NCBI GenBank assembly: GCA_028130375.1
Contig: GCA_028130375.1_3658.1
Reading direction: 5' to 3' (one strand)
Source: a phage
DNA: 64,000 nt
Shown here piece by piece: positions 4,483 through 42,119 of this stretch (position 1 is its first letter; each line of letters opens with the position of its first letter). A program made the position numbers and the translations under genes. The notes beneath the pieces were generated by a model that searched no databases, had not been told where the DNA came from, and saw only the letters and a program-made list of their open reading frames with translations.

Positions 4483-5523
4483 ATGTCAAAACCTAGTTTT
4501 CCATTAGAGATTTGGGCAGAGGAGGATCAGGTTCTGCCTAACACCCACAGACAGAACAGGCTACGCCCGATTGATGATTTGTGGAGAAAAGGTTGGGATC
4601 TTGGTCAAAAGCCCTCATGTGAAGAACTTAACTATATTTTCAATATGCTCGGGACTTGGGCAAAATACATTGCTGACGAGCAGATCCCAGCTCAAGAAGG
4701 CCGTTATCTGGTACGTGATAATAACTTGAGCGATCTTTTGAACATTCCTGTTGCCCGTAGAAACCTTGGGATTATCACTAAGGAAGAGGCAGACGCCAGG
4801 TATGTAAAAGTTACAGGTGATACAATGACAGGCCCCTTGGGGTTGCAACGTATCAACTTTAAAGCTGCCGAGACAGATAAGGCTTGGATAGAGACAACTA
4901 TTGGCCCAGATAAGACAACCCTCGACTTTGGGTTAAGTGATAATACCGGGCCGTTTGATGATGGTGGTACATCTACAGTAGATGCGTTTCGTTGGAGATT
5001 CCAGCCAACTCAGCCGGATATTAATCCAGAGTTCACTTTGATGTACCTTAACGCGATCACGGCTAATCGTGCGCTGTTGAAAGTGGTAGGCAATGTTGAA
5101 GTTGTTGATAACATGAGGTGCAATAACCTTACTATCAGCAATACAGCAACATTCACCAACTGTAATGTGGCCAGTCAGTTGACGGCTGGGTCAGTATATG
5201 TTAATGGTGGTGCAAGTTGTGACAGTATGGTTGTAAGAAGCCAGCACTGTGTTGTCGGCAACAGAAATGTGGTGCGCTCCGTGAATGGAGTGACGGCTAA
5301 CGGTAACGGTGATGTAACGATCACTATCCCGCAGACAGGTGTGCAAGACATCAGAATCGGTGCAAGACTTGTGGACGGCGTTTCTGAATCTCCAATCCGC
5401 AACGGATACGTTGTCACAGGCTGGCATTTCGGTGACAAAAAAGAGATGCGTGGTTCAACCTACTGGGCAGGACCTTTACAAAAACTTGTAAATGGTCAAT
5501 GGATCACTGTTAATTATGCATAG
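4483..5523 (+). CDS. Tail fibre protein, copy 1
   Basis: 346 aa; conserved fibre-type N-terminus (PLEIWAEEDQV...W..G), followed directly by a Tfa-type chaperone gene; C-terminal 20 aa nearly identical to the 6538-7581 product. Confidence 0.55.
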   Translation: MSKPSFPLEIWAEEDQVLPNTHRQNRLRPIDDLWRKGWDLGQKPSCEELNYIFNMLGTWAKYIADEQIPAQEGRYLVRDNNLSDLLNIPVARRNLGIITKEEADARYVKVTGDTMTGPLGLQRINFKAAETDKAWIETTIGPDKTTLDFGLSDNTGPFDDGGTSTVDAFRWRFQPTQPDINPEFTLMYLNAITANRALLKVVGNVEVVDNMRCNNLTISNTATFTNCNVASQLTAGSVYVNGGASCDSMVVRSQHCVVGNRNVVRSVNGVTANGNGDVTITIPQTGVQDIRIGARLVDGVSESPIRNGYVVTGWHFGDKKEMRGSTYWAGPLQKLVNGQWITVNYA

Positions 5524-6537: not shown

Positions 6538-7581
6538 ATGACTAAACCAGTTATCCCTCTTGATATTTGGGCCAATCAGGATGTTGTGCTTGAAAATACA
6601 GGAGAGTTGAATAAGTCTCAACCAAAAAAAGAAGAGAGATTGAAAGGTTGGGATATGACACAAAGAGTGGCATGTGAAGTTGTTAACTTTGAACTTCACA
6701 TGCTTTCTGCGTGGTTAAAGCATCTAACAGAAGATGTTGTCCCAGGATGGGATAATAGATTCTTAAGGGTCACTAATAATCTAGCAGACGTTCCAGACAA
6801 AGCTGCTGCACGTCAAGTTCTCAATGTATACTCGCCTGAAGAAATGGACGATCTGTATGTTGACAAGTCTGGAGACATAATGACTCAGACTCAAACTTTA
6901 GGTCTTCAAAGAATCGAGTTTGCATCTGCGTCAACAGACAATGCGGCAATATATACCACCATAACTCCAGACAAGACGACGATGGATTTCTGGATTATGG
7001 ACAACATCGGTGGTGCTGACGGCACAGACCTTGATGATCCTTCTCACCAAATAGACGGGTTCCGTTGGAGATTTCAACCTTCTGGTGGGCAGCCTGTGTT
7101 TTCGGCTATGAAGCTCAATGCTATAACTGCCAACCGTGCAAGACTGGCTATCCAAGGAAATCTTGAATGCAACGATGCAAAAAGTTCCTCTGCAAATGCC
7201 AATGCGGTCACGATACCAAGAGCCACTGTTAACGGACAACAATCCTGCGGAAGCGCTCAAATAGGTGGAAGAGTTGATTGTAACGATGAAACAGTCAGGG
7301 GTCAATATGCAACAGTTGGTGGAAGAAACGTGGTCCGCAGGGTAAATGGTAACGGCGCAGACAGTAGTGGTAACCTTACTATCCCTATGCCCAGCAGAGG
7401 GGTTGATGATGTAAGGATAGCAAACCGTTTCAAAACCACCTACAGAGAGTCAAGAGTCTACCCTGGACATGTGATGTGCTCTGGTAACTACGCTTATAAA
7501 CACCCTTATCAAGGTGATTACTGGACAGGTGCTATCCAAAAACTTGTAAATGGTCAATGGATCACTATATCTTATGCTTAA
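6538..7581 (+). CDS. Tail fibre protein, copy 2 (paralog of 4483-5523)
   Basis: 347 aa; N-terminus PLDIWANQDVV and C-terminus YWTGAIQKLVNGQWITISYA parallel copy 1; central region divergent. Confidence 0.55.
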   Translation: MTKPVIPLDIWANQDVVLENTGELNKSQPKKEERLKGWDMTQRVACEVVNFELHMLSAWLKHLTEDVVPGWDNRFLRVTNNLADVPDKAAARQVLNVYSPEEMDDLYVDKSGDIMTQTQTLGLQRIEFASASTDNAAIYTTITPDKTTMDFWIMDNIGGADGTDLDDPSHQIDGFRWRFQPSGGQPVFSAMKLNAITANRARLAIQGNLECNDAKSSSANANAVTIPRATVNGQQSCGSAQIGGRVDCNDETVRGQYATVGGRNVVRRVNGNGADSSGNLTIPMPSRGVDDVRIANRFKTTYRESRVYPGHVMCSGNYAYKHPYQGDYWTGAIQKLVNGQWITISYA

Positions 7582-16726: not shown

Positions 16727-17197
16727 TTACTCCGGTTCAGGATCTGGGTAATCTTCAATAATAAAGGGCCATCCGTTCCGCTTAGCCTCAGACTTATACT
16801 CAATCTCCTTCATTGCAAACTCTAACTGATTCTTAGCCGGAATACATGCCGGAGAATCATCAATCCAGATATCTGGGTAGATATCAAACTGCGCCAGGTA
16901 GGCTGCCTTCTGAACACCACCTGTGTAGAACACACCAACATCGAGCTCCTTGCGCCAATACTCAATGTCTACATTGTCTTGAGTAATGAATCGGAAAGTC
17001 ACAAGGTAGACTGTCCACCCCTCCTTCTTCAGATCCCTGATCAGGCTGGAGAAGATGAAAGGGCTCGCATTAAACGTTCCATCAAAGTCGATGGCAATGA
17101 TGTGCGTGCCGTGGCGAGTCTCATATGGATTGCTCGTGGTAAGATTGCTGTAATTAAAAGGGACTTCTTCCCCGCAGTAGCTGTAGTCCATATTCAC
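16727..17197 (-). CDS. HAD-superfamily phosphatase / nucleotidase-like protein
   Basis: 156 aa; motif I IIAIDFDGT (DxDGT) and C-terminal IWIDDS acidic motif typical of HAD hydrolases. Confidence 0.6.
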   Translation of the reverse strand: MNMDYSYCGEEVPFNYSNLTTSNPYETRHGTHIIAIDFDGTFNASPFIFSSLIRDLKKEGWTVYLVTFRFITQDNVDIEYWRKELDVGVFYTGGVQKAAYLAQFDIYPDIWIDDSPACIPAKNQLEFAMKEIEYKSEAKRNGWPFIIEDYPDPEPE

Positions 17198-17469
17198 ACC
17201 TTCTCGTTGATAAATTTACGGGCGGTTTGGTGAGTTGTTTCTGCTGTCTTCAGAATGATATTAATTTTATCGTCAAGATCATTCATCTCGGCAGTTAATT
17301 CAGGAATCTCTCCGGCATGCATGGTGAAATCATACATAGACATGCCCAAGATCTCATTGATGCGGCGGTTGCATTCTGCAGCACGCTGGTTCATTTTCCA
17401 AGCTAACACCAAAGCCTCCTGCGTAGCCTCTAGTGCAAAATCTAATACGTCGGCCTCTTCTTTCGTCAT
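17194..17469 (-). CDS. Hypothetical protein
   Basis: 91-aa ORF, start overlaps downstream gene by 4 bp. Confidence 0.45.
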   Translation of the reverse strand: MTKEEADVLDFALEATQEALVLAWKMNQRAAECNRRINEILGMSMYDFTMHAGEIPELTAEMNDLDDKINIILKTAETTHQTARKFINEKV

Positions 17470-17526
17470 CTTAGTCTCTCCTGTTGTATTGTTGGTAGGT
17501 GTATGAATACCTTATAACTCACCTTT

Positions 17527-18093
17527 TTATTCAAACTGCAATAGTAAGTCCACCACCGCGCTAGGTCTGTCAACAAATTCCCCAGGTCCACATGCCCACA
17601 GAGGGTATCCGTCTACATACCGCCAAATCCAACCTGCAGTGTGGAGTTCGAGCAGGGCAGTACCGTCCTTACTGTCAACCACTCTTTCCCACAGTGTCGG
17701 GCAGCGAAGCTTGAGGATCGGATCCCCTCCCTTATACCCATCCATGTAGATACCCATTGCAAAGTTCAGCATCATCTTTTTGTGCACTGATCTTTTACTG
17801 AGGGTACTCATCACTTCCTCTTTGTGAATGTTTGTAAGCTTCTCCTTGGCTACCCGCAGATCGTTGCAACCATTGTTCAGCAGATCTTCCAGACACTTGA
17901 TCCGAAGGTCGTGAATGTCTTTGTCGTGTACCGTTGGCACAGGGTCGTAGCGGTATAGCACTGTTGATACAAGGTTGCTCGGGTGTGGGTCTGACAGCAA
18001 CCCATAACCCCAATACTCTTCTGTATCTGAAAGGACAAGACACCCAATGTCTCTGTCAAGCTTTCCTGTGTTGTAAGCCACATTGACCGCCAT
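17527..18093 (-). CDS. Hypothetical protein
   Basis: 188-aa ORF, no recognisable motif. Confidence 0.5.
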   Translation of the reverse strand: MAVNVAYNTGKLDRDIGCLVLSDTEEYWGYGLLSDPHPSNLVSTVLYRYDPVPTVHDKDIHDLRIKCLEDLLNNGCNDLRVAKEKLTNIHKEEVMSTLSKRSVHKKMMLNFAMGIYMDGYKGGDPILKLRCPTLWERVVDSKDGTALLELHTAGWIWRYVDGYPLWACGPGEFVDRPSAVVDLLLQFE

Positions 18094-18095
18094 GA

Positions 18096-18341
18096 CTATA
18101 GCTCCACTAGCAAAGTGCTTTCAAAGTGCCGTTCATGCAAACCGTTGTAAGGGACCACTTCTACAACGCCATCACGGACATATGGGGCCATCATGGTGGT
18201 ATAATCTCCAAACGGGTTGGTATTGTCACTAACCACAACCACCTTCTGCCATTCCTTGGCAGAGTGCCAAATAGATCTGCACTTCATCAGGTGTTCGAGA
18301 GCTCCAGGTAAAATTTTGTTACGTTCTTTACGGGTCTTCAT
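18096..18341 (-). CDS. Hypothetical protein
   Basis: 81-aa ORF tightly packed between neighbours. Confidence 0.4.
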   Translation of the reverse strand: MKTRKERNKILPGALEHLMKCRSIWHSAKEWQKVVVVSDNTNPFGDYTTMMAPYVRDGVVEVVPYNGLHERHFESTLLVEL

Positions 18342-18787
18342 AACAGATATAGCTCCTTATGAAAGTGGTCTTTTAATTTCTCACTGAGAAACTTCTTGAT
18401 ACCTTCCTCTAAAGTGTTTTCGATGTAGTCCAGCTTAACTGCTTCGATGGACATATCATAGATTGCCAGCTCTAAGCTGTCAAGTCCCATCATAGCATGA
18501 ACCATAAGATTTTCATCTTCAGATACATTCAGGGGACTTCCTATAACATCTGGAGGCAGAATAGTTTCCCAATTATTCTGGGTGGTAGTTCTCCCGCCAT
18601 CTACTTTACGGCGCAGTTCGAATGTGTTCTTAGTGTAGAACACTTCATAAGAAACGATACGACTGTCACTCTCATAATAAACGAAGTTCAGGTAGGAGCC
18701 TAGCCGCAGTCGGCAAACTTCCACCCCAAACCATTGTTTCTTATAAGAATTCAGGCTAATGCTGTCGCATTCACGTTTGCTCAACAC
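18338..18787 (-). CDS. Hypothetical protein
   Basis: 149-aa ORF. Confidence 0.5.
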   Translation of the reverse strand: MLSKRECDSISLNSYKKQWFGVEVCRLRLGSYLNFVYYESDSRIVSYEVFYTKNTFELRRKVDGGRTTTQNNWETILPPDVIGSPLNVSEDENLMVHAMMGLDSLELAIYDMSIEAVKLDYIENTLEEGIKKFLSEKLKDHFHKELYLL

Positions 18788-18803
18788 GGCTATCTCCTTT
18801 TTG

Positions 18804-19037
18804 TTAATCTTCGTAAATCAGGATTTCTGCTTTAGGTTTTCGTGCTTTCAGGTCCAGCTCTATCCAGTGCACCATAGCTGTTTCAAGAAAAACAGCTTGG
18901 ATGCATCCGTCCTCAGCGTGCCCCACCAACATAACGAGATCTTCACCTTCGTCATCTGCATCACGAACATAAAGAATCTCTCCAGATTCGAAGTCTTTCA
19001 CAACCTGATTGCTAGATAATTTTCTAATTTTTGCCAT
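18804..19037 (-). CDS. Small paralogous protein, array member 4 (divergent)
   Basis: 77 aa; shares the G-x-V/I..V and I.ILGE/IEIL themes of the three upstream 87-aa genes. Confidence 0.45.
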   Translation of the reverse strand: MAKIRKLSSNQVVKDFESGEILYVRDADDEGEDLVMLVGHAEDGCIQAVFLETAMVHWIELDLKARKPKAEILIYED

Positions 19038-19038
19038 A

Positions 19039-19302
19039 TCAGAAACCCTCTAAAAAGCTCTTGTAGAAAACAATCTCAGTATCCACACCAGTCACAATCT
19101 TGTCGTTCCTGATTTCATCGGTAAGATAGGTGTCAAAACGCAGAACCTGTGTGGTGTTGTCACACATCCACTCAGCTGTGACCATTGCGAAAATCTTAGC
19201 ATCTTCATTATCTGGTGTGAATGTTACCACCTCACCGCACTTAAACTTTTCGATAGGCTGAGTGTTAGCTTTCGGTTCTGCGATAGTGATTTTTGTGGTC
19301 AT
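19039..19302 (-). CDS. Small paralogous protein, array member 3
   Basis: 87 aa; CGEVVTF...IVFY pattern parallels the neighbouring paralogs. Confidence 0.5.
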   Translation of the reverse strand: MTTKITIAEPKANTQPIEKFKCGEVVTFTPDNEDAKIFAMVTAEWMCDNTTQVLRFDTYLTDEIRNDKIVTGVDTEIVFYKSFLEGF

Positions 19303-19565
19303 TATTCTCCTCCTTCTTTTGAATAGCTTGTCTCTCCAAGGATGGTAATTTTGGTGTCAAGCTCTGTAACTTTCATGTTTGGCGGCAGATCGTACAACTC
19401 ATTATTTTCTAAATCGAACCCCCACACACAATGTTCTCCTGTTTTGACAATCATAACTATGTTTTGAATGCCGTCTCCGTCGCAACTTACCACGGTCCCA
19501 CACGGAAAACTGTCTGCACGCTTTTTGTTCTTCACCTTAGAATTGAATACAATGCTGGTAGCCAT
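19302..19565 (-). CDS. Small paralogous protein, array member 2
   Basis: 87 aa; MATSIVF..CGTVV...ITILGE; start and stop overlap its neighbours. Confidence 0.5.
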   Translation of the reverse strand: MATSIVFNSKVKNKKRADSFPCGTVVSCDGDGIQNIVMIVKTGEHCVWGFDLENNELYDLPPNMKVTELDTKITILGETSYSKEGGE

Positions 19566-19828
19566 TATTGTTCCTCCACCATAACTTCGCCAAGAATTTC
19601 TATGCAGGCATCCATTTCTGTAACAACCAAACTGTGAGGCAGTTCTACAAACACCTTTCTGAACAGGTCAAATACCCCAACATATATGTTTGCAGGATGT
19701 GATTTTACAACAAGTGCTGTATTCACATCCCCAAGTTCATCAACAAACATCACCACAGTGCCTGGAGCTACTGAGGACAGATACTTCTTAGTTTTACGGT
19801 TTGATGCAAATTTTAACTCTGTTGCCAT
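19565..19828 (-). CDS. Small paralogous protein, array member 1
   Basis: 87 aa; MATELKF..PGTVV...IEILGE. Confidence 0.5.
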   Translation of the reverse strand: MATELKFASNRKTKKYLSSVAPGTVVMFVDELGDVNTALVVKSHPANIYVGVFDLFRKVFVELPHSLVVTEMDACIEILGEVMVEEQ

Positions 19829-19843
19829 AAATAACCTCCTCTC

Positions 19844-21325
19844 TTACTTAGCGTACTCGATTAATTCCACAGTTTTCCCAAAGCTCGGGATATAATTTTT
19901 ATTATACCCCTCAGTGAGGACCCATAGAGTATCGTACTTTTTCCACTTGTTGTCAACAACCTTTTGTTCAAAGTTATGCTCAAAGTATAGGTCGGTCAGG
20001 ACGATGACATCTTTTGCATTAGGTATGTTGGCATCCAGATACTCGAACACGCAAGCAGCTGTTGTGCCCCATGTTGAGTGGACCTCATAGTTGACCATCT
20101 CGTCTATGTTGCCGCGAGTGTATACTTTAACCTCTCCAACCTCAGTTGACCAACAGAACATTGTAACCTTAAACTCTTTATACAGATTGCACAATCCGGT
20201 GATTTCATTGAACATTTTCTTTAAAGTTCTTTGAGAGATCGAGCCAGAAACGTCTAAAGCCACCACAATATCTATAGTGTTTTCCGGATTACGACCAGGA
20301 ACAATAACGTGCTGGTTCTTGTTTATAGCCCCAACTTTTCGCATTGTGCTGGTCAAAGACCCAGATCGGCGACCAGGTTTTCTGTAGGTCAGTTCGGCCT
20401 TTCTTTTAGACAACATACGTTGCTTAATGATGTCTATATAGTTGATTACAGGCTTACCTCTGTTCTTGACAAACTCACGCACCGCCTCAGGGCAACGGCC
20501 TCCGGACGCTTGCATTGCTGCCTCCAGCATATCACCAGAGTCCTGCATGGCCTGATCTTTATCAGATTGGCTGATTACAGGTTGTGGCTGATCATACCCC
20601 ATAGCCTTTCCAAGATTATCACTGGTGCCACCGTTCCCACTCATGTGATCATCGGTTTGTCGCTTATCACTTTGAGAGTTCTCACCTTTACCGTTCTTAC
20701 TTTTACCGTTATTCTGATCTCTTTGCTTATCAAGAACTGCATAAACGTTCTCAGCAATCCATCCATGAAACTTCATGTCGCAGTAGCAGCTGGCTAAGAA
20801 GCCAAAAGGCTTACCTTTCATGAACGTAGTGCTTTTCCCCTTCGGGAAGAAAACACAAGGAGGTTTGCTAAAGTCAACCACAAGGCCTGTGTTGATAACG
20901 TGATCACAAGCAATATTGAACAGTTCCGGCTCAAAGCTTTTACCACGGACTAGGTGATCACAGATAATATGCCCCACCTCATGTGACAGAAGGAAGGCCA
21001 CCTCTTTCACAGATTTTGGGGAATAGAAAACTTCAGCCATCTCAAACTGCTCGTCAGTTAGAGAAGCCTTAAGAATAGCCTTGCGTTCATCAGCCAATCC
21101 CATAATGAACTCAGGACTGTAATAGATGCGTTTATGGTCGGTTGCCATGGTGGAGCACCATGTGTGGTTTTCTACGAACTGCAACCCTGACAGTAGTGTG
21201 CCATAAAACGGCAACTTTTCAAGGAGATACATACGTGCAGCCTGCAACATTCTCAGGGCATCATCTTTCTGCGAGGCAATGATTTCTGAACTTCTGCTAT
21301 CCATTAAAACTCCAGAAGGGGCCAT
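19844..21325 (-). CDS. VWA-domain protein with N-terminal HExxH metallopeptidase-like domain
   Basis: 493 aa; HEVGH zinc-binding motif in the N-terminal half; MIDAS-type motif DVSGSIS within DIVVALDVSGSISQ in the C-terminal half. Confidence 0.75.
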   Translation of the reverse strand: MAPSGVLMDSRSSEIIASQKDDALRMLQAARMYLLEKLPFYGTLLSGLQFVENHTWCSTMATDHKRIYYSPEFIMGLADERKAILKASLTDEQFEMAEVFYSPKSVKEVAFLLSHEVGHIICDHLVRGKSFEPELFNIACDHVINTGLVVDFSKPPCVFFPKGKSTTFMKGKPFGFLASCYCDMKFHGWIAENVYAVLDKQRDQNNGKSKNGKGENSQSDKRQTDDHMSGNGGTSDNLGKAMGYDQPQPVISQSDKDQAMQDSGDMLEAAMQASGGRCPEAVREFVKNRGKPVINYIDIIKQRMLSKRKAELTYRKPGRRSGSLTSTMRKVGAINKNQHVIVPGRNPENTIDIVVALDVSGSISQRTLKKMFNEITGLCNLYKEFKVTMFCWSTEVGEVKVYTRGNIDEMVNYEVHSTWGTTAACVFEYLDANIPNAKDVIVLTDLYFEHNFEQKVVDNKWKKYDTLWVLTEGYNKNYIPSFGKTVELIEYAK

Positions 21326-21333
21326 TGGCCCCT
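21316..21333 (-). terminator. Hairpin terminator for the 21338-22381 gene
   Basis: aggggcc-att-ggcccct palindrome with T-run on the - strand, immediately downstream of the stop at 21338. Confidence 0.45.
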
Positions 21334-21337
21334 GTCA

Positions 21338-22381
21338 TTATTTAACGTGTTTGAAAATACCTGCCAACTCGGTCATTGTCATGCGGGTGGTCTTCATAAG
21401 ATCTGTCATAGCTTTCTCCATAATTGGAGATACTACCATAAAGTTTCCTTTAGTGAAACCTTTATTCCAGTCGGTCACCAACAGGGGTTTAAGTCCAGCT
21501 CCAAGACGTTCACCAGTTAAAGCACAGCATTTGCGAATATACGAACTCTTAAATTGGCTGAACGACAGATCAACTTTCATACCTACATCGTAGAACGTTT
21601 GACAATAGAAAGTGTAAGCTTTGGCAATCTCAACATCATCAGGTAGTGCAGGAACCTCTTCTGTAAGCCCCTCTTCGACCTCCTGAGTCTCTTTTTCCTC
21701 TTCATGCACCTGTTGCGTCATTTCTTCAATCTCTTCTGTGATAGGCTCGTTTACAATGTCGGAAATGTGCTTCTTGGGTGCACGATAAGTAACTTTAGAC
21801 ATCGGTAGCATATCTTCCTCCTCTTCTTCGTCAAAGAGTGCTAGTTTATCCTCTTCCGTTCCATATTGCAAGATGAAATCTTCAAAAGTATAATCACCTT
21901 TCAATTTCTCCATACGCTCTTCGCTCAGGTGGAGCATCATCTGCTGGACAATTTTTCGATCAGTTTCGTCTTTAATCAAGACTGCAGTCTTTTTATCTAC
22001 CAGACAGTCCTTTAGAGAGTTGCATCTCAATCCCACCACACAACAGTTATCAACCGCATAAGGACCTTCATCATCTATCCGCTCCAGGGATGGGTAGAAA
22101 GGATTCCCCAGCCCGTTTTCATCTGTGTGCATGTCAAAAGGTATAAGGGTATAGTCGCATACTCCATCTCCTAAAAGTTTTTTACCAAATAGGAGGTATT
22201 CTTCCCATGACAGGTCGAACTCTATATCTCGTTTCCGTGCGTTATTCTGTTTGCGTCTATATTTTTTGAGCAAGCGCTCTAACTCTTCTGGTGTATAATA
22301 TTTTTCAAGATTCATGAGTCGTCTCTCGTGCTCTGTAAGTGAAGAAATCGTATCAATTGTCTCAACAGATGTCAACATCAA
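21338..22381 (-). CDS. Hypothetical protein with two Cys-containing modules and an acidic linker; internal start candidate
   Basis: 347 aa; module ERIDDEGPYAVDNCCVVGLRCNSLK and a second CCALTGERLG...module; Glu-rich linker; internal RBS gaggagga + ATG (MSKVTYRA) lies in a 29-bp inverted repeat. Confidence 0.55.
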   Translation of the reverse strand: MMLTSVETIDTISSLTEHERRLMNLEKYYTPEELERLLKKYRRKQNNARKRDIEFDLSWEEYLLFGKKLLGDGVCDYTLIPFDMHTDENGLGNPFYPSLERIDDEGPYAVDNCCVVGLRCNSLKDCLVDKKTAVLIKDETDRKIVQQMMLHLSEERMEKLKGDYTFEDFILQYGTEEDKLALFDEEEEEDMLPMSKVTYRAPKKHISDIVNEPITEEIEEMTQQVHEEEKETQEVEEGLTEEVPALPDDVEIAKAYTFYCQTFYDVGMKVDLSFSQFKSSYIRKCCALTGERLGAGLKPLLVTDWNKGFTKGNFMVVSPIMEKAMTDLMKTTRMTMTELAGIFKHVK

Positions 22382-22388
22382 AAACGTG

Positions 22389-22417
22389 TTGACTTTACTC
22401 TAACTCCACAATATAGT
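22389..22417 (+). promoter_or_regulatory. sigma70-like promoter TTGACT-17-TATAGT in divergent intergenic region
   Basis: TTGACT 22389-22394, 17-bp spacer, TATAGT 22412-22417, about 40 bp before the 22458 start. Confidence 0.55.
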
Positions 22418-22457
22418 GCACCCATTCGAAAGAAAACTAACATAGGAGCACTTACTT

Positions 22458-23357
22458 ATGGCAAATCTTAACAGTTTTAGTACGCGGTGGAAACAGGACA
22501 TAACAACCAATCTTTCAGCTGGGGACATCCTTTCTGCAATTTACGAGGCTTTAGATGATAAAGCTACTTCAAAAGCGGTTTGTACCAACCCATTAATTCC
22601 TATAGTGATGAAGGTTATTGAGCGTAGATTGGTATCTGGGTCTGATAAGTGGACATATTTAGATAATGAAGGACACACCTATTCCAATGGGTATGTCGAT
22701 ATAAAAGTAGAATACGCGGTATCATACCGCCGGAGCGGTTCTGTAACTTTCAACTTCTCTGGAGGTTTTCGATCTCTGGCTACCTCACCTTTTGTTTCCT
22801 CAGAGGAGAAGTATGAGCTGCCATTTCTTTGGATGATGGCTAACGCGACAGGAAAAACCCCCGTTAGCATCCGAGTAAAATACAACTACAACGGATCTAG
22901 TAAGATCTATGCCGAAAGTGTCTCAGCAAGTTTTTATTTTGTGATGGGGGATGGAATCCTCAAACATATAAAGATGTGCGATATGCATGATGTTATAAAT
23001 GAAGTGACTGATAAGAATGTTCTAGTGAAAGACCTCAACAATTTTTATACACCTGGAGACTATTACGTCAGCCGTCCACTGTGCATCTTTAATGCCGCAC
23101 ACCCTCTAGGTGAGTATTTGATCGCCAATAGCGATATTGCCAATAACCGCTTCGAGGTAGCAAGAGTTCAGAATGAGGTATTGACATCTTGCAAGAGCGG
23201 TGATAAGTTTACCGAAGAAGAGATGGGTGTTTTAGAAATGATGGGATATAAGTGTAGCCTTTGGGTAGATGAGGTGTTTAATGATTGCATCTATGGACAG
23301 GATATTTACCCATTAAAGAAGTATACTGATACAAGTTTAATTTATGCGAGGGTTTGA
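22458..23357 (+). CDS. Hypothetical protein
   Basis: 299-aa ORF opening the + strand block. Confidence 0.55.
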   Translation: MANLNSFSTRWKQDITTNLSAGDILSAIYEALDDKATSKAVCTNPLIPIVMKVIERRLVSGSDKWTYLDNEGHTYSNGYVDIKVEYAVSYRRSGSVTFNFSGGFRSLATSPFVSSEEKYELPFLWMMANATGKTPVSIRVKYNYNGSSKIYAESVSASFYFVMGDGILKHIKMCDMHDVINEVTDKNVLVKDLNNFYTPGDYYVSRPLCIFNAAHPLGEYLIANSDIANNRFEVARVQNEVLTSCKSGDKFTEEEMGVLEMMGYKCSLWVDEVFNDCIYGQDIYPLKKYTDTSLIYARV

Positions 23358-24686: not shown

Positions 24687-24956
24687 ATGTTATACCAGCA
24701 ATATGAACTTCGTGCAGAAAAAGAGTTAAATTTTGACAAAGATATTCACAGATATTATTATGGGAAAGTTAGAGGGCAAGCAAGAAAGTGTACTCCAACA
24801 CTCTTTTATGCCAGCAGACGACTAGCGCCAGAAGAGGCAACAGCAGAAAGGGTTGCGTACAACTGGAGAGTCACGTATGATATTGACAGATTCGATGTGA
24901 TATCTGTTTTGGAAAACTTTGAAAACACTTACACACAAGTAGAGGACTTTTACTAA
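24687..24956 (+). CDS. Hypothetical protein
   Basis: 89-aa ORF. Confidence 0.45.
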   Translation: MLYQQYELRAEKELNFDKDIHRYYYGKVRGQARKCTPTLFYASRRLAPEEATAERVAYNWRVTYDIDRFDVISVLENFENTYTQVEDFY

Positions 24957-26140
24957 TGTCAAGAAACGTATTCGAAAGTGGTCAAATCACTGTCCGTGAG
25001 TTGCCAGCTATTATTCAGTTTGCCCAACGTCATAGCCGATCTGTCCTAATTTTGGGACCAATGGGTGTGGGTAAAAGCCAGGTGATGAAGCAGATCGCTG
25101 ATAATATGTTCGGTGAGCGAGATGACAACCTTGTTGACGTGCGACTGTCAGATAAAGATCCTGCCGACTTATCTGGGCTACCTATCCCTGTAGAAGCGGA
25201 TGGAACTACACGTACAGTGTTTGCAATTCCAGAATTTTGGCCTGCGGATCCTGACTGGAGCGGAATTATCTTTCTGGATGAGCTCACTCATGCAGATAAC
25301 TACCTGCAAAAGGTTGCAATGCAAATTATGCTTGACCACAAGTGCGGCACCTATGCATTCCCTAAGGGTTCTGTTTTTGTGGCTGCGGGTAACCGTTCTA
25401 CAGATGGTGCGGTTCTTTCGGCGCTCGAAGCCCCTCTGGCTAACCGTTTTATCATTGTAGAGGTTACAAGCAATGCAGAGGTGTTTATTGAGGACTACGC
25501 ATTCCTCAACGGGGTTCACTCCTCTGTAATTGGGTATCTGAAAAGAGTTCCATCAGCTATTGATAATTATGAGGCTATGGCTGAGATTAATTGTCCATCT
25601 TTTGCCACACCACGATCTTGGGTTGCTGCATCTGACATCTTGCACGATTTTGACAGCGGTATTATTTCTGACGCTATGGCCCGTGTTCTTCTACAAGGTG
25701 CTATTGGTCACACTGCAGCGGTAGAGATCTGGACTTACCACACCAAGAAACGTAATTTACCGGAAATCGGTCGGATTATGGCAGGTGGCTGCAAAGAATA
25801 CGTAGGTCCTAAGCAGCCAGACATTTTGTGGATTCTTGGATCTGAAGGTTGTATCGCTATTCGCAATATGATGGAAAATGCAAGTATCTCAGACGAAGAT
25901 CTTGTCAGCTGCGTGGCAAACTTCCTCGATTTCCTTTGGGAAAACTTCAAGGACGAGAACCGAGATTTTGTATTCTCAGTCTTTATGGCGATGATGAAAC
26001 CTAATGCCTTAGGAAATGCCTTGCTTATCGGTAAAGGGCGTGACAAGATTGTTGCTCAGCTGATCAAAGCATACCCAAACCTGATGAAGATTGTAAAAGA
26101 GTTTGGTGAAGAGTTTAGCGCCATTTTGGCTAAAGCTTAA
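24956..26140 (+). CDS. AAA+ ATPase, MoxR/CobS-like
   Basis: 394 aa; Walker A GPMGVGKS, Walker B IIFLDELTHA, sensor-like AAGNRS. Confidence 0.8.
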   Translation: MSRNVFESGQITVRELPAIIQFAQRHSRSVLILGPMGVGKSQVMKQIADNMFGERDDNLVDVRLSDKDPADLSGLPIPVEADGTTRTVFAIPEFWPADPDWSGIIFLDELTHADNYLQKVAMQIMLDHKCGTYAFPKGSVFVAAGNRSTDGAVLSALEAPLANRFIIVEVTSNAEVFIEDYAFLNGVHSSVIGYLKRVPSAIDNYEAMAEINCPSFATPRSWVAASDILHDFDSGIISDAMARVLLQGAIGHTAAVEIWTYHTKKRNLPEIGRIMAGGCKEYVGPKQPDILWILGSEGCIAIRNMMENASISDEDLVSCVANFLDFLWENFKDENRDFVFSVFMAMMKPNALGNALLIGKGRDKIVAQLIKAYPNLMKIVKEFGEEFSAILAKA

Positions 26141-41540: not shown

Positions 41541-41795
41541 ATGAAAATTACTTTGAAGCCAGAATGCGTTGCAAATGACCGAGCTTTTAAAGATTGCACA
41601 GTCGGTGCAATTTATGAAGCAGAGTTTTGTGAGAACCCTCTGGTAAAAGCCCTTCTGGAAGAAGGGGCCCCTTTATCACAAGAAGAGATCGATGAGCTGG
41701 AAAACTCAGCACAGTGCCTTACCTTTAAAGATGACGAAGGAGACTCTGTCTGGTGCACTGTTAATGAAGTAGTTTTTGTAAAACCTGAACATTAA
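41541..41795 (+). CDS. Small Cys-containing protein, paralog A
   Basis: 84 aa; KPECVANDRAFKDCT...DDEGDSVWCTVNEV parallels the next gene. Confidence 0.45.
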   Translation: MKITLKPECVANDRAFKDCTVGAIYEAEFCENPLVKALLEEGAPLSQEEIDELENSAQCLTFKDDEGDSVWCTVNEVVFVKPEH

Positions 41796-41798
41796 TAC

Positions 41799-41827
41799 TT
41801 GACAACAGTGATGGGGCCTAATATAAT
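41799..41827 (+). promoter_or_regulatory. Consensus sigma70 promoter TTGACA-17-TATAAT
   Basis: TTGACA 41799-41804, 17-bp spacer, TATAAT 41822-41827; about 30 bp before ATG 41859. Confidence 0.6.
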
Positions 41828-41858
41828 GGCCCTATCAAAACGAAAGGGGACCACAGCA

Positions 41859-42119
41859 ATGACCAAACAATATCAACGAATTAAAGCCAAGGTTAAGCCA
41901 GACTATCTGGAGAAGGACTCTGCTTTTCGGGACTGCACAGCCGACAAAGTTTACACAGGGACTGTCCTGTTGAACGATAAACTTGAAGTAGATGTGCTGG
42001 GTAAAGAGGCCGTTATCGAGGATGACAACGGTGACTGTGTTTTCTGCACCACACGGGAGCTAGAAGTCTTAGAATACTTCGGTGAAATCTTCAACTCCTT
42101 AGACGACGAGGAAGCGTGA
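41859..42119 (+). CDS. Small Cys-containing protein, paralog B
   Basis: Start moved to ATG 41859 downstream of the promoter and RBS aaagggga; KPDYLEKDSAFRDCT...DDNGDCVFCTTREL. Confidence 0.45.
   Translation: MTKQYQRIKAKVKPDYLEKDSAFRDCTADKVYTGTVLLNDKLEVDVLGKEAVIEDDNGDCVFCTTRELEVLEYFGEIFNSLDDEEA

Follow-up and report, generated by a model that had tools for sequence, protein, structure and literature searches.

Four small open reading frames follow each other in tandem in a phage DNA stretch of 64,000 nucleotides (contig GCA_028130375.1_3658.1; this whole stretch is called the window below). The question which this locus raises is whether the four genes are copies of one ancestral gene, and what their products do for the phage. 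A first interpretation, made from the letters of the DNA (the sequence-only reading), saw in them diversified paralogues of a phage accessory module, typical of host-interaction or anti-defence factors under diversifying selection.

The gene array and the phage that carries it

The 5.5 kb around the array are 99.9% identical to Escherichia phage Murica, Shigella phage CM1 and the BASEL phage CarlMeissner (Bas48), and the array region matches 119 phage records, all of them rV5-like Vequintavirus. Judged by this nucleotide identity, the window belongs to a Vequintavirus (an rV5/Murica-like coliphage). All four open reading frames are present on the minus strand, in the tandem arrangement that had been described for them. 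The features referred to in the following are:

19565-19828, minus strand: g1, open reading frame of 87 aa (phrog_10698)
19302-19565, minus strand: g2, open reading frame of 87 aa (phrog_10698), paralogue of g1
19039-19302, minus strand: g3, open reading frame of 87 aa (phrog_12861), remote paralogue and most constrained member
18804-19037, minus strand: g4, open reading frame of 77 aa (phrog_12046), most divergent member
19313-19814, minus strand: swappable cassette, from codon 6 of g1 to the end of g2, without detectable nucleotide similarity to rV5-type phages (blastn)
19844-21325, minus strand: metallopeptidase with DUF2201_N and VWA-like domains (Pfam PF13203, E=4e-28; PF09967, E=3e-11), upstream neighbour of the array
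18338-18787, minus strand: gp017 homologue, 149 aa, downstream neighbour of the array
22347-22375, minus strand: sigma-70-type promoter (rV5 P11), TTGACA-17-TACGAT with an extended -10 TG, upstream of an Srd-like gene
about 24956-26140, plus strand: MoxR ATPase, the usual partner of a DUF2201_N/VWA metallopeptidase

The genes of the array are the same as gp014, gp015 and gp016 of rV5, gp13-16 of Murica and bas48_0051-0054 of Bas48, and more than 100 public genomes encode their proteins with 93-100% identity. In the public annotation, g1-g4 are hypothetical proteins (Murica gp13-16, bas48_0054-0051). Full-length matches to PHROG profiles were obtained for all four (g1, 7.6e-43, and g2, 4.8e-41, both to phrog_10698; g3, 8.8e-62, to phrog_12861; g4, 5.1e-55, to phrog_12046). 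The array is an ordinary but tidy case of a lytic phage with accessory paralogues in tandem, whose genes are already in the databases, unnamed.

The gene junctions differ from the ATGA-type overlaps ascribed to them, none of which is present. At the g1/g2 and g2/g3 junctions the sequence is TAATG, with one base common to the stop codon of g1 and the start codon of g2, and likewise to the stop of g2 and the start of g3, and the stop of g3 is separated from the start of g4 by a one-base spacer (TGAtATG). The Shine-Dalgarno sequence of g1 (AGGAGG) is located at 19840-19835, and that of each array gene is formed by the last codons of the preceding gene; g1 itself starts 16 bases past the metallopeptidase stop codon. 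Overlapping starts and stops are general across this genome.

The sequence segments said to be shared by all four products hold for part of them. The MAT start is found in g1 and g2 (g3 starts with MTT and g4 with MAK), the (C/P)G(T/E)VV segment in g1 (PGTVV), g2 (CGTVV) and g3 (CGEVV) with SGEIL in g4, and the C-terminal I(E/T)ILGE segment in g1 and g2, being absent from g3 and g4.

tRNA and Rfam scans of the window returned nothing. Furthermore, 16 records named 'Campylobacter phage' (host C. jejuni) match positions 17000-22500 of the window at 90% identity or more (C12, 99.0%); a mistaken host label or contaminated preparations are the probable cause.

Relationship of the four proteins

Similarity beyond chance, and with it the proposal that the four genes are tandem paralogues, was confirmed by a direct pairwise score for g1 and g2 and by profile tests for g3 and g4, whose scores none of 2000 shuffled sequences reached. 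The proteins g1 and g2 share 38% identity (local score z=19; 0 of 2000 shuffles equal the score). Marginal pairwise local scores were obtained for g2-g3 (z=4.5), g3-g4 (z=3.7) and g2-g4 (z=3.0), and g1-g3 and g1-g4 gave no significant score in local alignment against 2000 shuffles.

The profiles were built on variants from related phages and included gp014, the rV5 protein of the g1/g2 type. Against the g1/g2/gp014 profile, g3 scored 15.6 bits (best of 2000 shuffles, 12.2), and hhalign gave P=4e-6 over 72 columns. The score of g4 against the g1/g2/gp014+g3 profile was 14.2 bits (best of 2000 shuffles, 9.2), with hhalign values of P=0.03 versus g1/g2/gp014 and P=0.016 versus g3. When all 358 open reading frames of the window were searched, g3 and g4 were the top matches outside each profile's own members, and this HMM search returned no further members of the family. 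In a neighbour-joining tree with g4 (a single sequence) as outgroup, the g1, g2, gp014 and g3 subtypes each received 98-100% bootstrap support, g1, g2 and gp014 forming an unresolved trichotomy.

By these scores, g1 and g2 are clear paralogues, and g3 and g4 are related to them distantly yet significantly; above-chance similarity unites all four in one family, with the link to g4 being the weakest. The family originated by ancient tandem duplication.

A predicted small β-barrel fold

The AlphaFold2 model of g2, made from a six-sequence alignment, has six strands (pLDDT 74.9), and that of g4, made from its own orthologues only, has a short helix and five strands (pLDDT 66.5). Both models, which are of medium confidence and come from shallow, separate alignments, have their five core strands in the same alignment columns. 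Fold and strand order, as modelled for g2 and g4, are hence those of one family as well. Both models match small β-barrels of the Tudor, SAWADEE, PWWP, KOW and Sm classes and have many of their top matches in common. The four proteins are probably stand-alone SH3/Tudor/Sm-like small β-barrels of about 9-10 kDa, as far as these models can be taken as a guide.

The array proteins are without sequence similarity to the SH3-like barrel class (Tudor, SAWADEE, PWWP, KOW, uL2 SH3-like, Sm/Hfq). Sequence searches with them in Pfam, NCBIfam and PDB gave only sub-threshold noise, with no match to Tudor or PWWP Pfam families at an E value of 1 or below and no Pfam match of g1-g4 to LSM or Hfq. They differ from this class in being acidic and, in the case of g1-g3, in a predicted extra long N-terminal strand; an aromatic cage or an Sm motif was not evident on an informal look at the sequences. 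The pI of all four lies between 4.5 and 5.0, which argues for protein binding over nucleic-acid binding.

The nearest structures in BFVD are g1 and gp014 themselves, followed by many uncharacterised phage proteins of 70-87 aa. Among the latter are proteins of N4-like and other lytic phages (N4 Gp21; two each in 172-1 and EP335) with Foldseek TM values of 0.57-0.69. Like the array genes, several of these are present in multiple copies per phage. These uncharacterised proteins are comparable with the array proteins in size and predicted fold, but just 10-22% identical to them in sequence.

Could only g1 and g2 be related, and the likeness of g3 and g4 to them reflect convergence of unrelated small β-rich proteins of similar length? 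The pairwise scores of g1-g3 and g1-g4 below significance, the modest hhalign values for g4, its absence from the results of an exhaustive profile search (see below) and the division of the genes among three distinct PHROGs would all agree with that. However, no shuffled sequence matched the profile scores of g3 and g4, both were the top non-member among the window's open reading frames, the separately built models have the same strand order in the same columns, and the genes are adjacent and of similar size; convergence is thus very unlikely in our view. What is gained here is mainly annotation: PHROGs keeps three separate families of unknown function, and the present analysis unites these as paralogues of a single family and assigns a predicted fold to it.

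Distribution of the family

When homologues of g2, g1 and g4 were sought by word-indexed search, nothing beyond near-identical Vequintavirus proteins came back. Among 1.84 billion protein representatives, an exhaustive HMMER search detected five true members, all from this phage group (its leucine-rich-repeat matches were rejected as spurious), and a scan of IMG/VR with g3 gave two loci only. On the evidence of these searches, the family is an orphan, known only from phages of the Vequintavirus group. The four-gene form is also present in a more divergent lineage (L016-L018).

In PVP-SE1, the metallopeptidase gene is directly followed by a homologue of rV5 gp017 (PVP-SE1 gp215, whose annotation records this similarity), and in KpS8, CR3 and W70 one gene of 120-170 aa stands in the array position. 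No relative of g1-g4 was found by HMM search of the equivalent regions in these four phages, which are other members of the Vequintavirinae. As the flanking genes adjoin without the array there, the array is an insertion specific to Vequintavirus and close relatives, and the gp017 homologue marks its far edge.

One member was observed in another setting. A short ENA metagenome contig (L014) carries at 1355-1606 a gp014-type gene (P0026, 83 aa, about 60% identity to rV5 gp014). It stands alone, between a gene for a 217-aa protein and a homologue of a cysteine-rich 126-aa protein (L007, 5801-6181), and beside neither the metallopeptidase nor g3 or g4, which implies that members of the family can relocate.

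Copy number and exchange of the first cassette

Both g3 and g4 are present in one copy each in 118 of 118 Vequintavirus records, g3 with 93-100% identity across all of them. The g1/g2 type is present either in two copies (g1+g2, 44 of the 118 records) or in one copy of the rV5 gp014 type (the other 74), and the g1 subtype is restricted to the four-gene version of the array. The gp014 protein of rV5 (85 aa) has about 40% identity to both g1 and g2. We considered a recombinant of g1 and g2 as its origin and rejected this, since the identity to both is an even 33-46% in all three thirds of the alignment; this even similarity along the length marks gp014 as a third subtype rather than a chimera.

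In blastn comparisons, the window is 92-97% identical to rV5, FV3 and Pr121LW and 86-95% identical to two metagenomic relatives. The similarity to rV5-type phages ends at 19814, 15 nt into g1, and restarts at 19313, where the ribosome-binding site of g3 lies. Judging from these sharp breakpoints, the variation is whole-cassette replacement, with g1+g2 on one side and a single gp014-type gene on the other. Pr121LW is classified as V. murica and yet has the gp014 type, so the cassette type is independent of the species. The first slot of the array is polymorphic among co-circulating phages, and its exchange proceeds by recombination at conserved gene boundaries.

Polymorphic accessory slots, in which small accessory genes are swapped between related lytic phages, are a familiar feature of such genomes. 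The array resembles them in its slot between conserved genes, in recombination at the boundaries and in genes that are non-essential in a laboratory host. It differs from them in that the alternatives are paralogues of one family and not unrelated genes.

Selection on the array genes

dN/dS values were calculated by the Nei-Gojobori method for orthologue pairs over the whole gene, with exclusion of pairs with saturated dS. The values were 0.06-0.24 for g1, 0.15 for g2, 0-0.10 for gp014, 0.02-0.13 for g4 and 0.01-0.05 for g3, the last range resting on near-saturated dS. Between the paralogues, synonymous sites are saturated. The diversifying selection postulated in the sequence-only reading is not supported by these results, as every orthologue comparison gave 0.24 or less, and neither a dN/dS above 1 nor divergence faster than that of the neighbours was found. 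It has to be replaced by purifying selection combined with cassette exchange. Purifying selection in the range of 0.01-0.24 also indicates that all four are real genes.

Compared with lineage L016, the neighbouring genes have 55-82% protein identity with saturated synonymous sites, g1 has 56% and g2 64%; the divergence of these two is on a par with that of the genes around them. For g3 and g4 (L016 4258-4756), protein identity is 98% and 95%, respectively, with a dS of about 0.6. Between the window and phage Aya, g3 has 44 synonymous and 7 non-synonymous differences and is near saturation even between close relatives. These two proteins are among the most conserved ones of the region and are unusually constrained. 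The comparison suggests that the g3-g4 block has probably been exchanged between lineages, in addition to extreme constraint on the proteins.

Transcription context and neighbouring genes

The promoter P11, located upstream of gp011 in the rV5 record (NC_011041), maps exactly onto the predicted promoter at 22375-22347. One transcription unit was proposed for rV5 genes 11-26, with gp11 being Srd-like (PMC3606486). The paralogues go unmentioned in the same paper, and gp14-16 are not among the virion proteins that its main text names (PMC3606486). Going by predicted and annotated promoters, the array lies in a P11-driven unit, with an Srd-like anti-sigma gene and the VWA-metallopeptidase gene upstream. 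This position under a predicted sigma-70 promoter, together with the non-essentiality of the orthologues of three of the genes in Bas54 (see below), is in line with the accessory region that had been proposed.

Two elements upstream of the array were observed in addition. A GC-rich hairpin at 21317-21333 (minus strand), between the Srd-like gene and the metallopeptidase gene, is given as a terminator in the Murica annotation, and a sigma-70-like match (10 of 12 positions) lies at 19928-19956 (minus strand), about 100 nt upstream of g1 and within the end of the metallopeptidase gene. With this hairpin and this promoter-like match, the array may be partly independent of P11 transcriptionally.

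Note also that several annotations of the neighbouring genes look like propagated misannotations. PHROGs and RefSeq name the metallopeptidase/VWA gene (19844-21325) and the Srd-like gene (21338-22315, minus strand) 'HNH endonuclease' and the gp017 homologue (18338-18787) 'tail protein'; Pfam supports metallopeptidase plus VWA for 19844-21325. The genes for the MoxR ATPase (24956-26140, plus strand) and the VWA-metallopeptidase (19844-21325, minus strand) are on opposite strands, about 3.6 kb apart.

Dispensability of the orthologues

A gene essentiality map obtained by HIDEN-SEQ exists for Bas54, a Vequintavirus of the three-gene type (10.1101/2025.11.20.689424). On E. coli K-12, 17 of 17 TA sites were disrupted in bas54_0054 (gp014 type), 13 of 15 in bas54_0053 (g3) and 12 of 12 in bas54_0052 (g4), and all three genes were called non-essential (10.1101/2025.11.20.689424). 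The orthologues are thus dispensable in this laboratory host.

For the clinical E. coli isolate CFE311, the log2FC values were +0.46 for the gp014 type, +0.33 for g3 and -1.32 for g4, none of them significant (q>=0.68), whereas insertions in the genes for MoxR (-7.23, q=0) and the metallopeptidase (-2.20, q=0.009) were depleted; gp017 showed a downward but not significant value of -2.28 (10.1101/2025.11.20.689424). The host of these values is uncertain and was taken to be CFE311, as the sheet of supplementary file 9 headed 'resampling_K-12_vs_CFE303' cites the command line and data of strain 311. A second resampling sheet (part 19) repeats the numbers of the first, and the values therefore represent one host. 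MoxR was reported to act in counter-defence, its target being the predicted system DS-28 (10.1101/2025.11.20.689424).

Possible function of the array

We tentatively favour the reading that the four proteins are early accessory binders of host or defence proteins that act stoichiometrically, and put its probability at roughly 0.45. In its favour are the acidity of the proteins and their build as small stand-alone domains, their dispensability, the polymorphism of the cassette and the genes that surround the array. In such a scheme, translation of the four genes would be coupled, and each protein would bind a host or defence protein early and in stoichiometric amounts, serving as an accessory factor of host takeover or counter-defence. 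The paralogues would have specialised on different partners, g3 and g4 with their near-invariant sequences on a conserved one and the swappable genes of the first slot on more variable ones. However, sequences as constant as those of g3 and g4 speak less for an arms race than for a housekeeping contact with a component of the phage or a conserved one of the host. Nor is the overlap of genes, a common trait of phage genomes, proof that they are translationally coupled or that their products form a complex.

Against this reading, no partner or phenotype is on record for any of the four proteins, the orthologue insertions were not significantly depleted in CFE311, and the models are of medium confidence from shallow alignments, with BFVD neighbours that are all uncharacterised. 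An anti-defence role of the array, as the sequence-only reading had envisaged, is plausible, and the array region also carries experimentally supported counter-defence genes (MoxR and VWA-metallopeptidase); the relevant data, from one host, are negative.

Alternatively, the four proteins could be subunits of one hetero-oligomer, for example an Sm/Lsm-like ring or a Tudor-like dimer, which coupled translation would supply with equal amounts of each. The gp014 protein alone would then be a homo-oligomer, and g1+g2 its duplicated heteromeric counterpart. We consider this unlikely, because overlaps of starts and stops occur throughout the genome, the low pI values are unlike those of RNA-binding Sm proteins, a look at the array sequences revealed neither an Sm1 nor an Sm2 motif, and the gp014-like gene on contig L014 is solitary and in another context. 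More elaborate still, and highly doubtful to us, is a swappable specificity cassette on a fixed scaffold, with g1+g2 and gp014 as interchangeable heteromeric and homomeric versions and a core of g3 and g4 that would lock onto a conserved host machine.

The Tudor/KOW-like folds could also point to regulators, which would bind RNA polymerase or nucleic acid and would redirect transcription or translation of the host in concert with the Srd-like anti-sigma factor. This seems improbable, as the Tudor/KOW structural matches are no better than dozens of equal-scoring matches to other small barrels, the proteins are acidic, the orthologues are non-essential, and the array is absent from sister genera which keep the Srd-like gene (e.g., PVP-SE1 gp218).

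Finally, the array proteins could serve the MoxR ATPase and VWA-metallopeptidase module as adaptors or substrates when it counters a host defence system. The spacing of 16 bases between the metallopeptidase gene and g1 speaks for this, as do the requirement for MoxR and the metallopeptidase in CFE311 (Bas54) and the downward, though not significant, values for g4 and gp017. However, PVP-SE1, KpS8, CR3 and W70 keep the metallopeptidase without the array, with no relatives found there by HMM, and CR3 retains an ATPase gene directly upstream of the metallopeptidase. Furthermore, insertions in the gp014-type gene and the g3 orthologue were not depleted in the host where MoxR reached -7.23. Neither co-occurrence nor a shared phenotype thus connects the array with this module; distribution and transposon data disfavour such a role, and we hold it to be hardly probable.

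If binding of host or defence proteins is true, the array would add a family of small β-barrel effectors from phages of therapeutic relevance, the rV5-like group, whose hosts include E. coli O157 and isolates from the urinary tract. The g1+g2 and the gp014-type phages of the BASEL collection are a ready-made natural experiment for this.

Other paralogous genes in the window

Two more pairs of paralogues were seen on the plus strand. The adjacent small open reading frames at 41541-41795 and 41799-42119 (84 and 106 aa) have 30% identity over 77 residues (E=2.5e-6). The genes at 4483-5523 and 6538-7581 encode paralogues of 346 and 347 aa with 43% identity, which are probably the T4 gp12-like short tail fibres, gp30 and gp33 of the rV5 paper.
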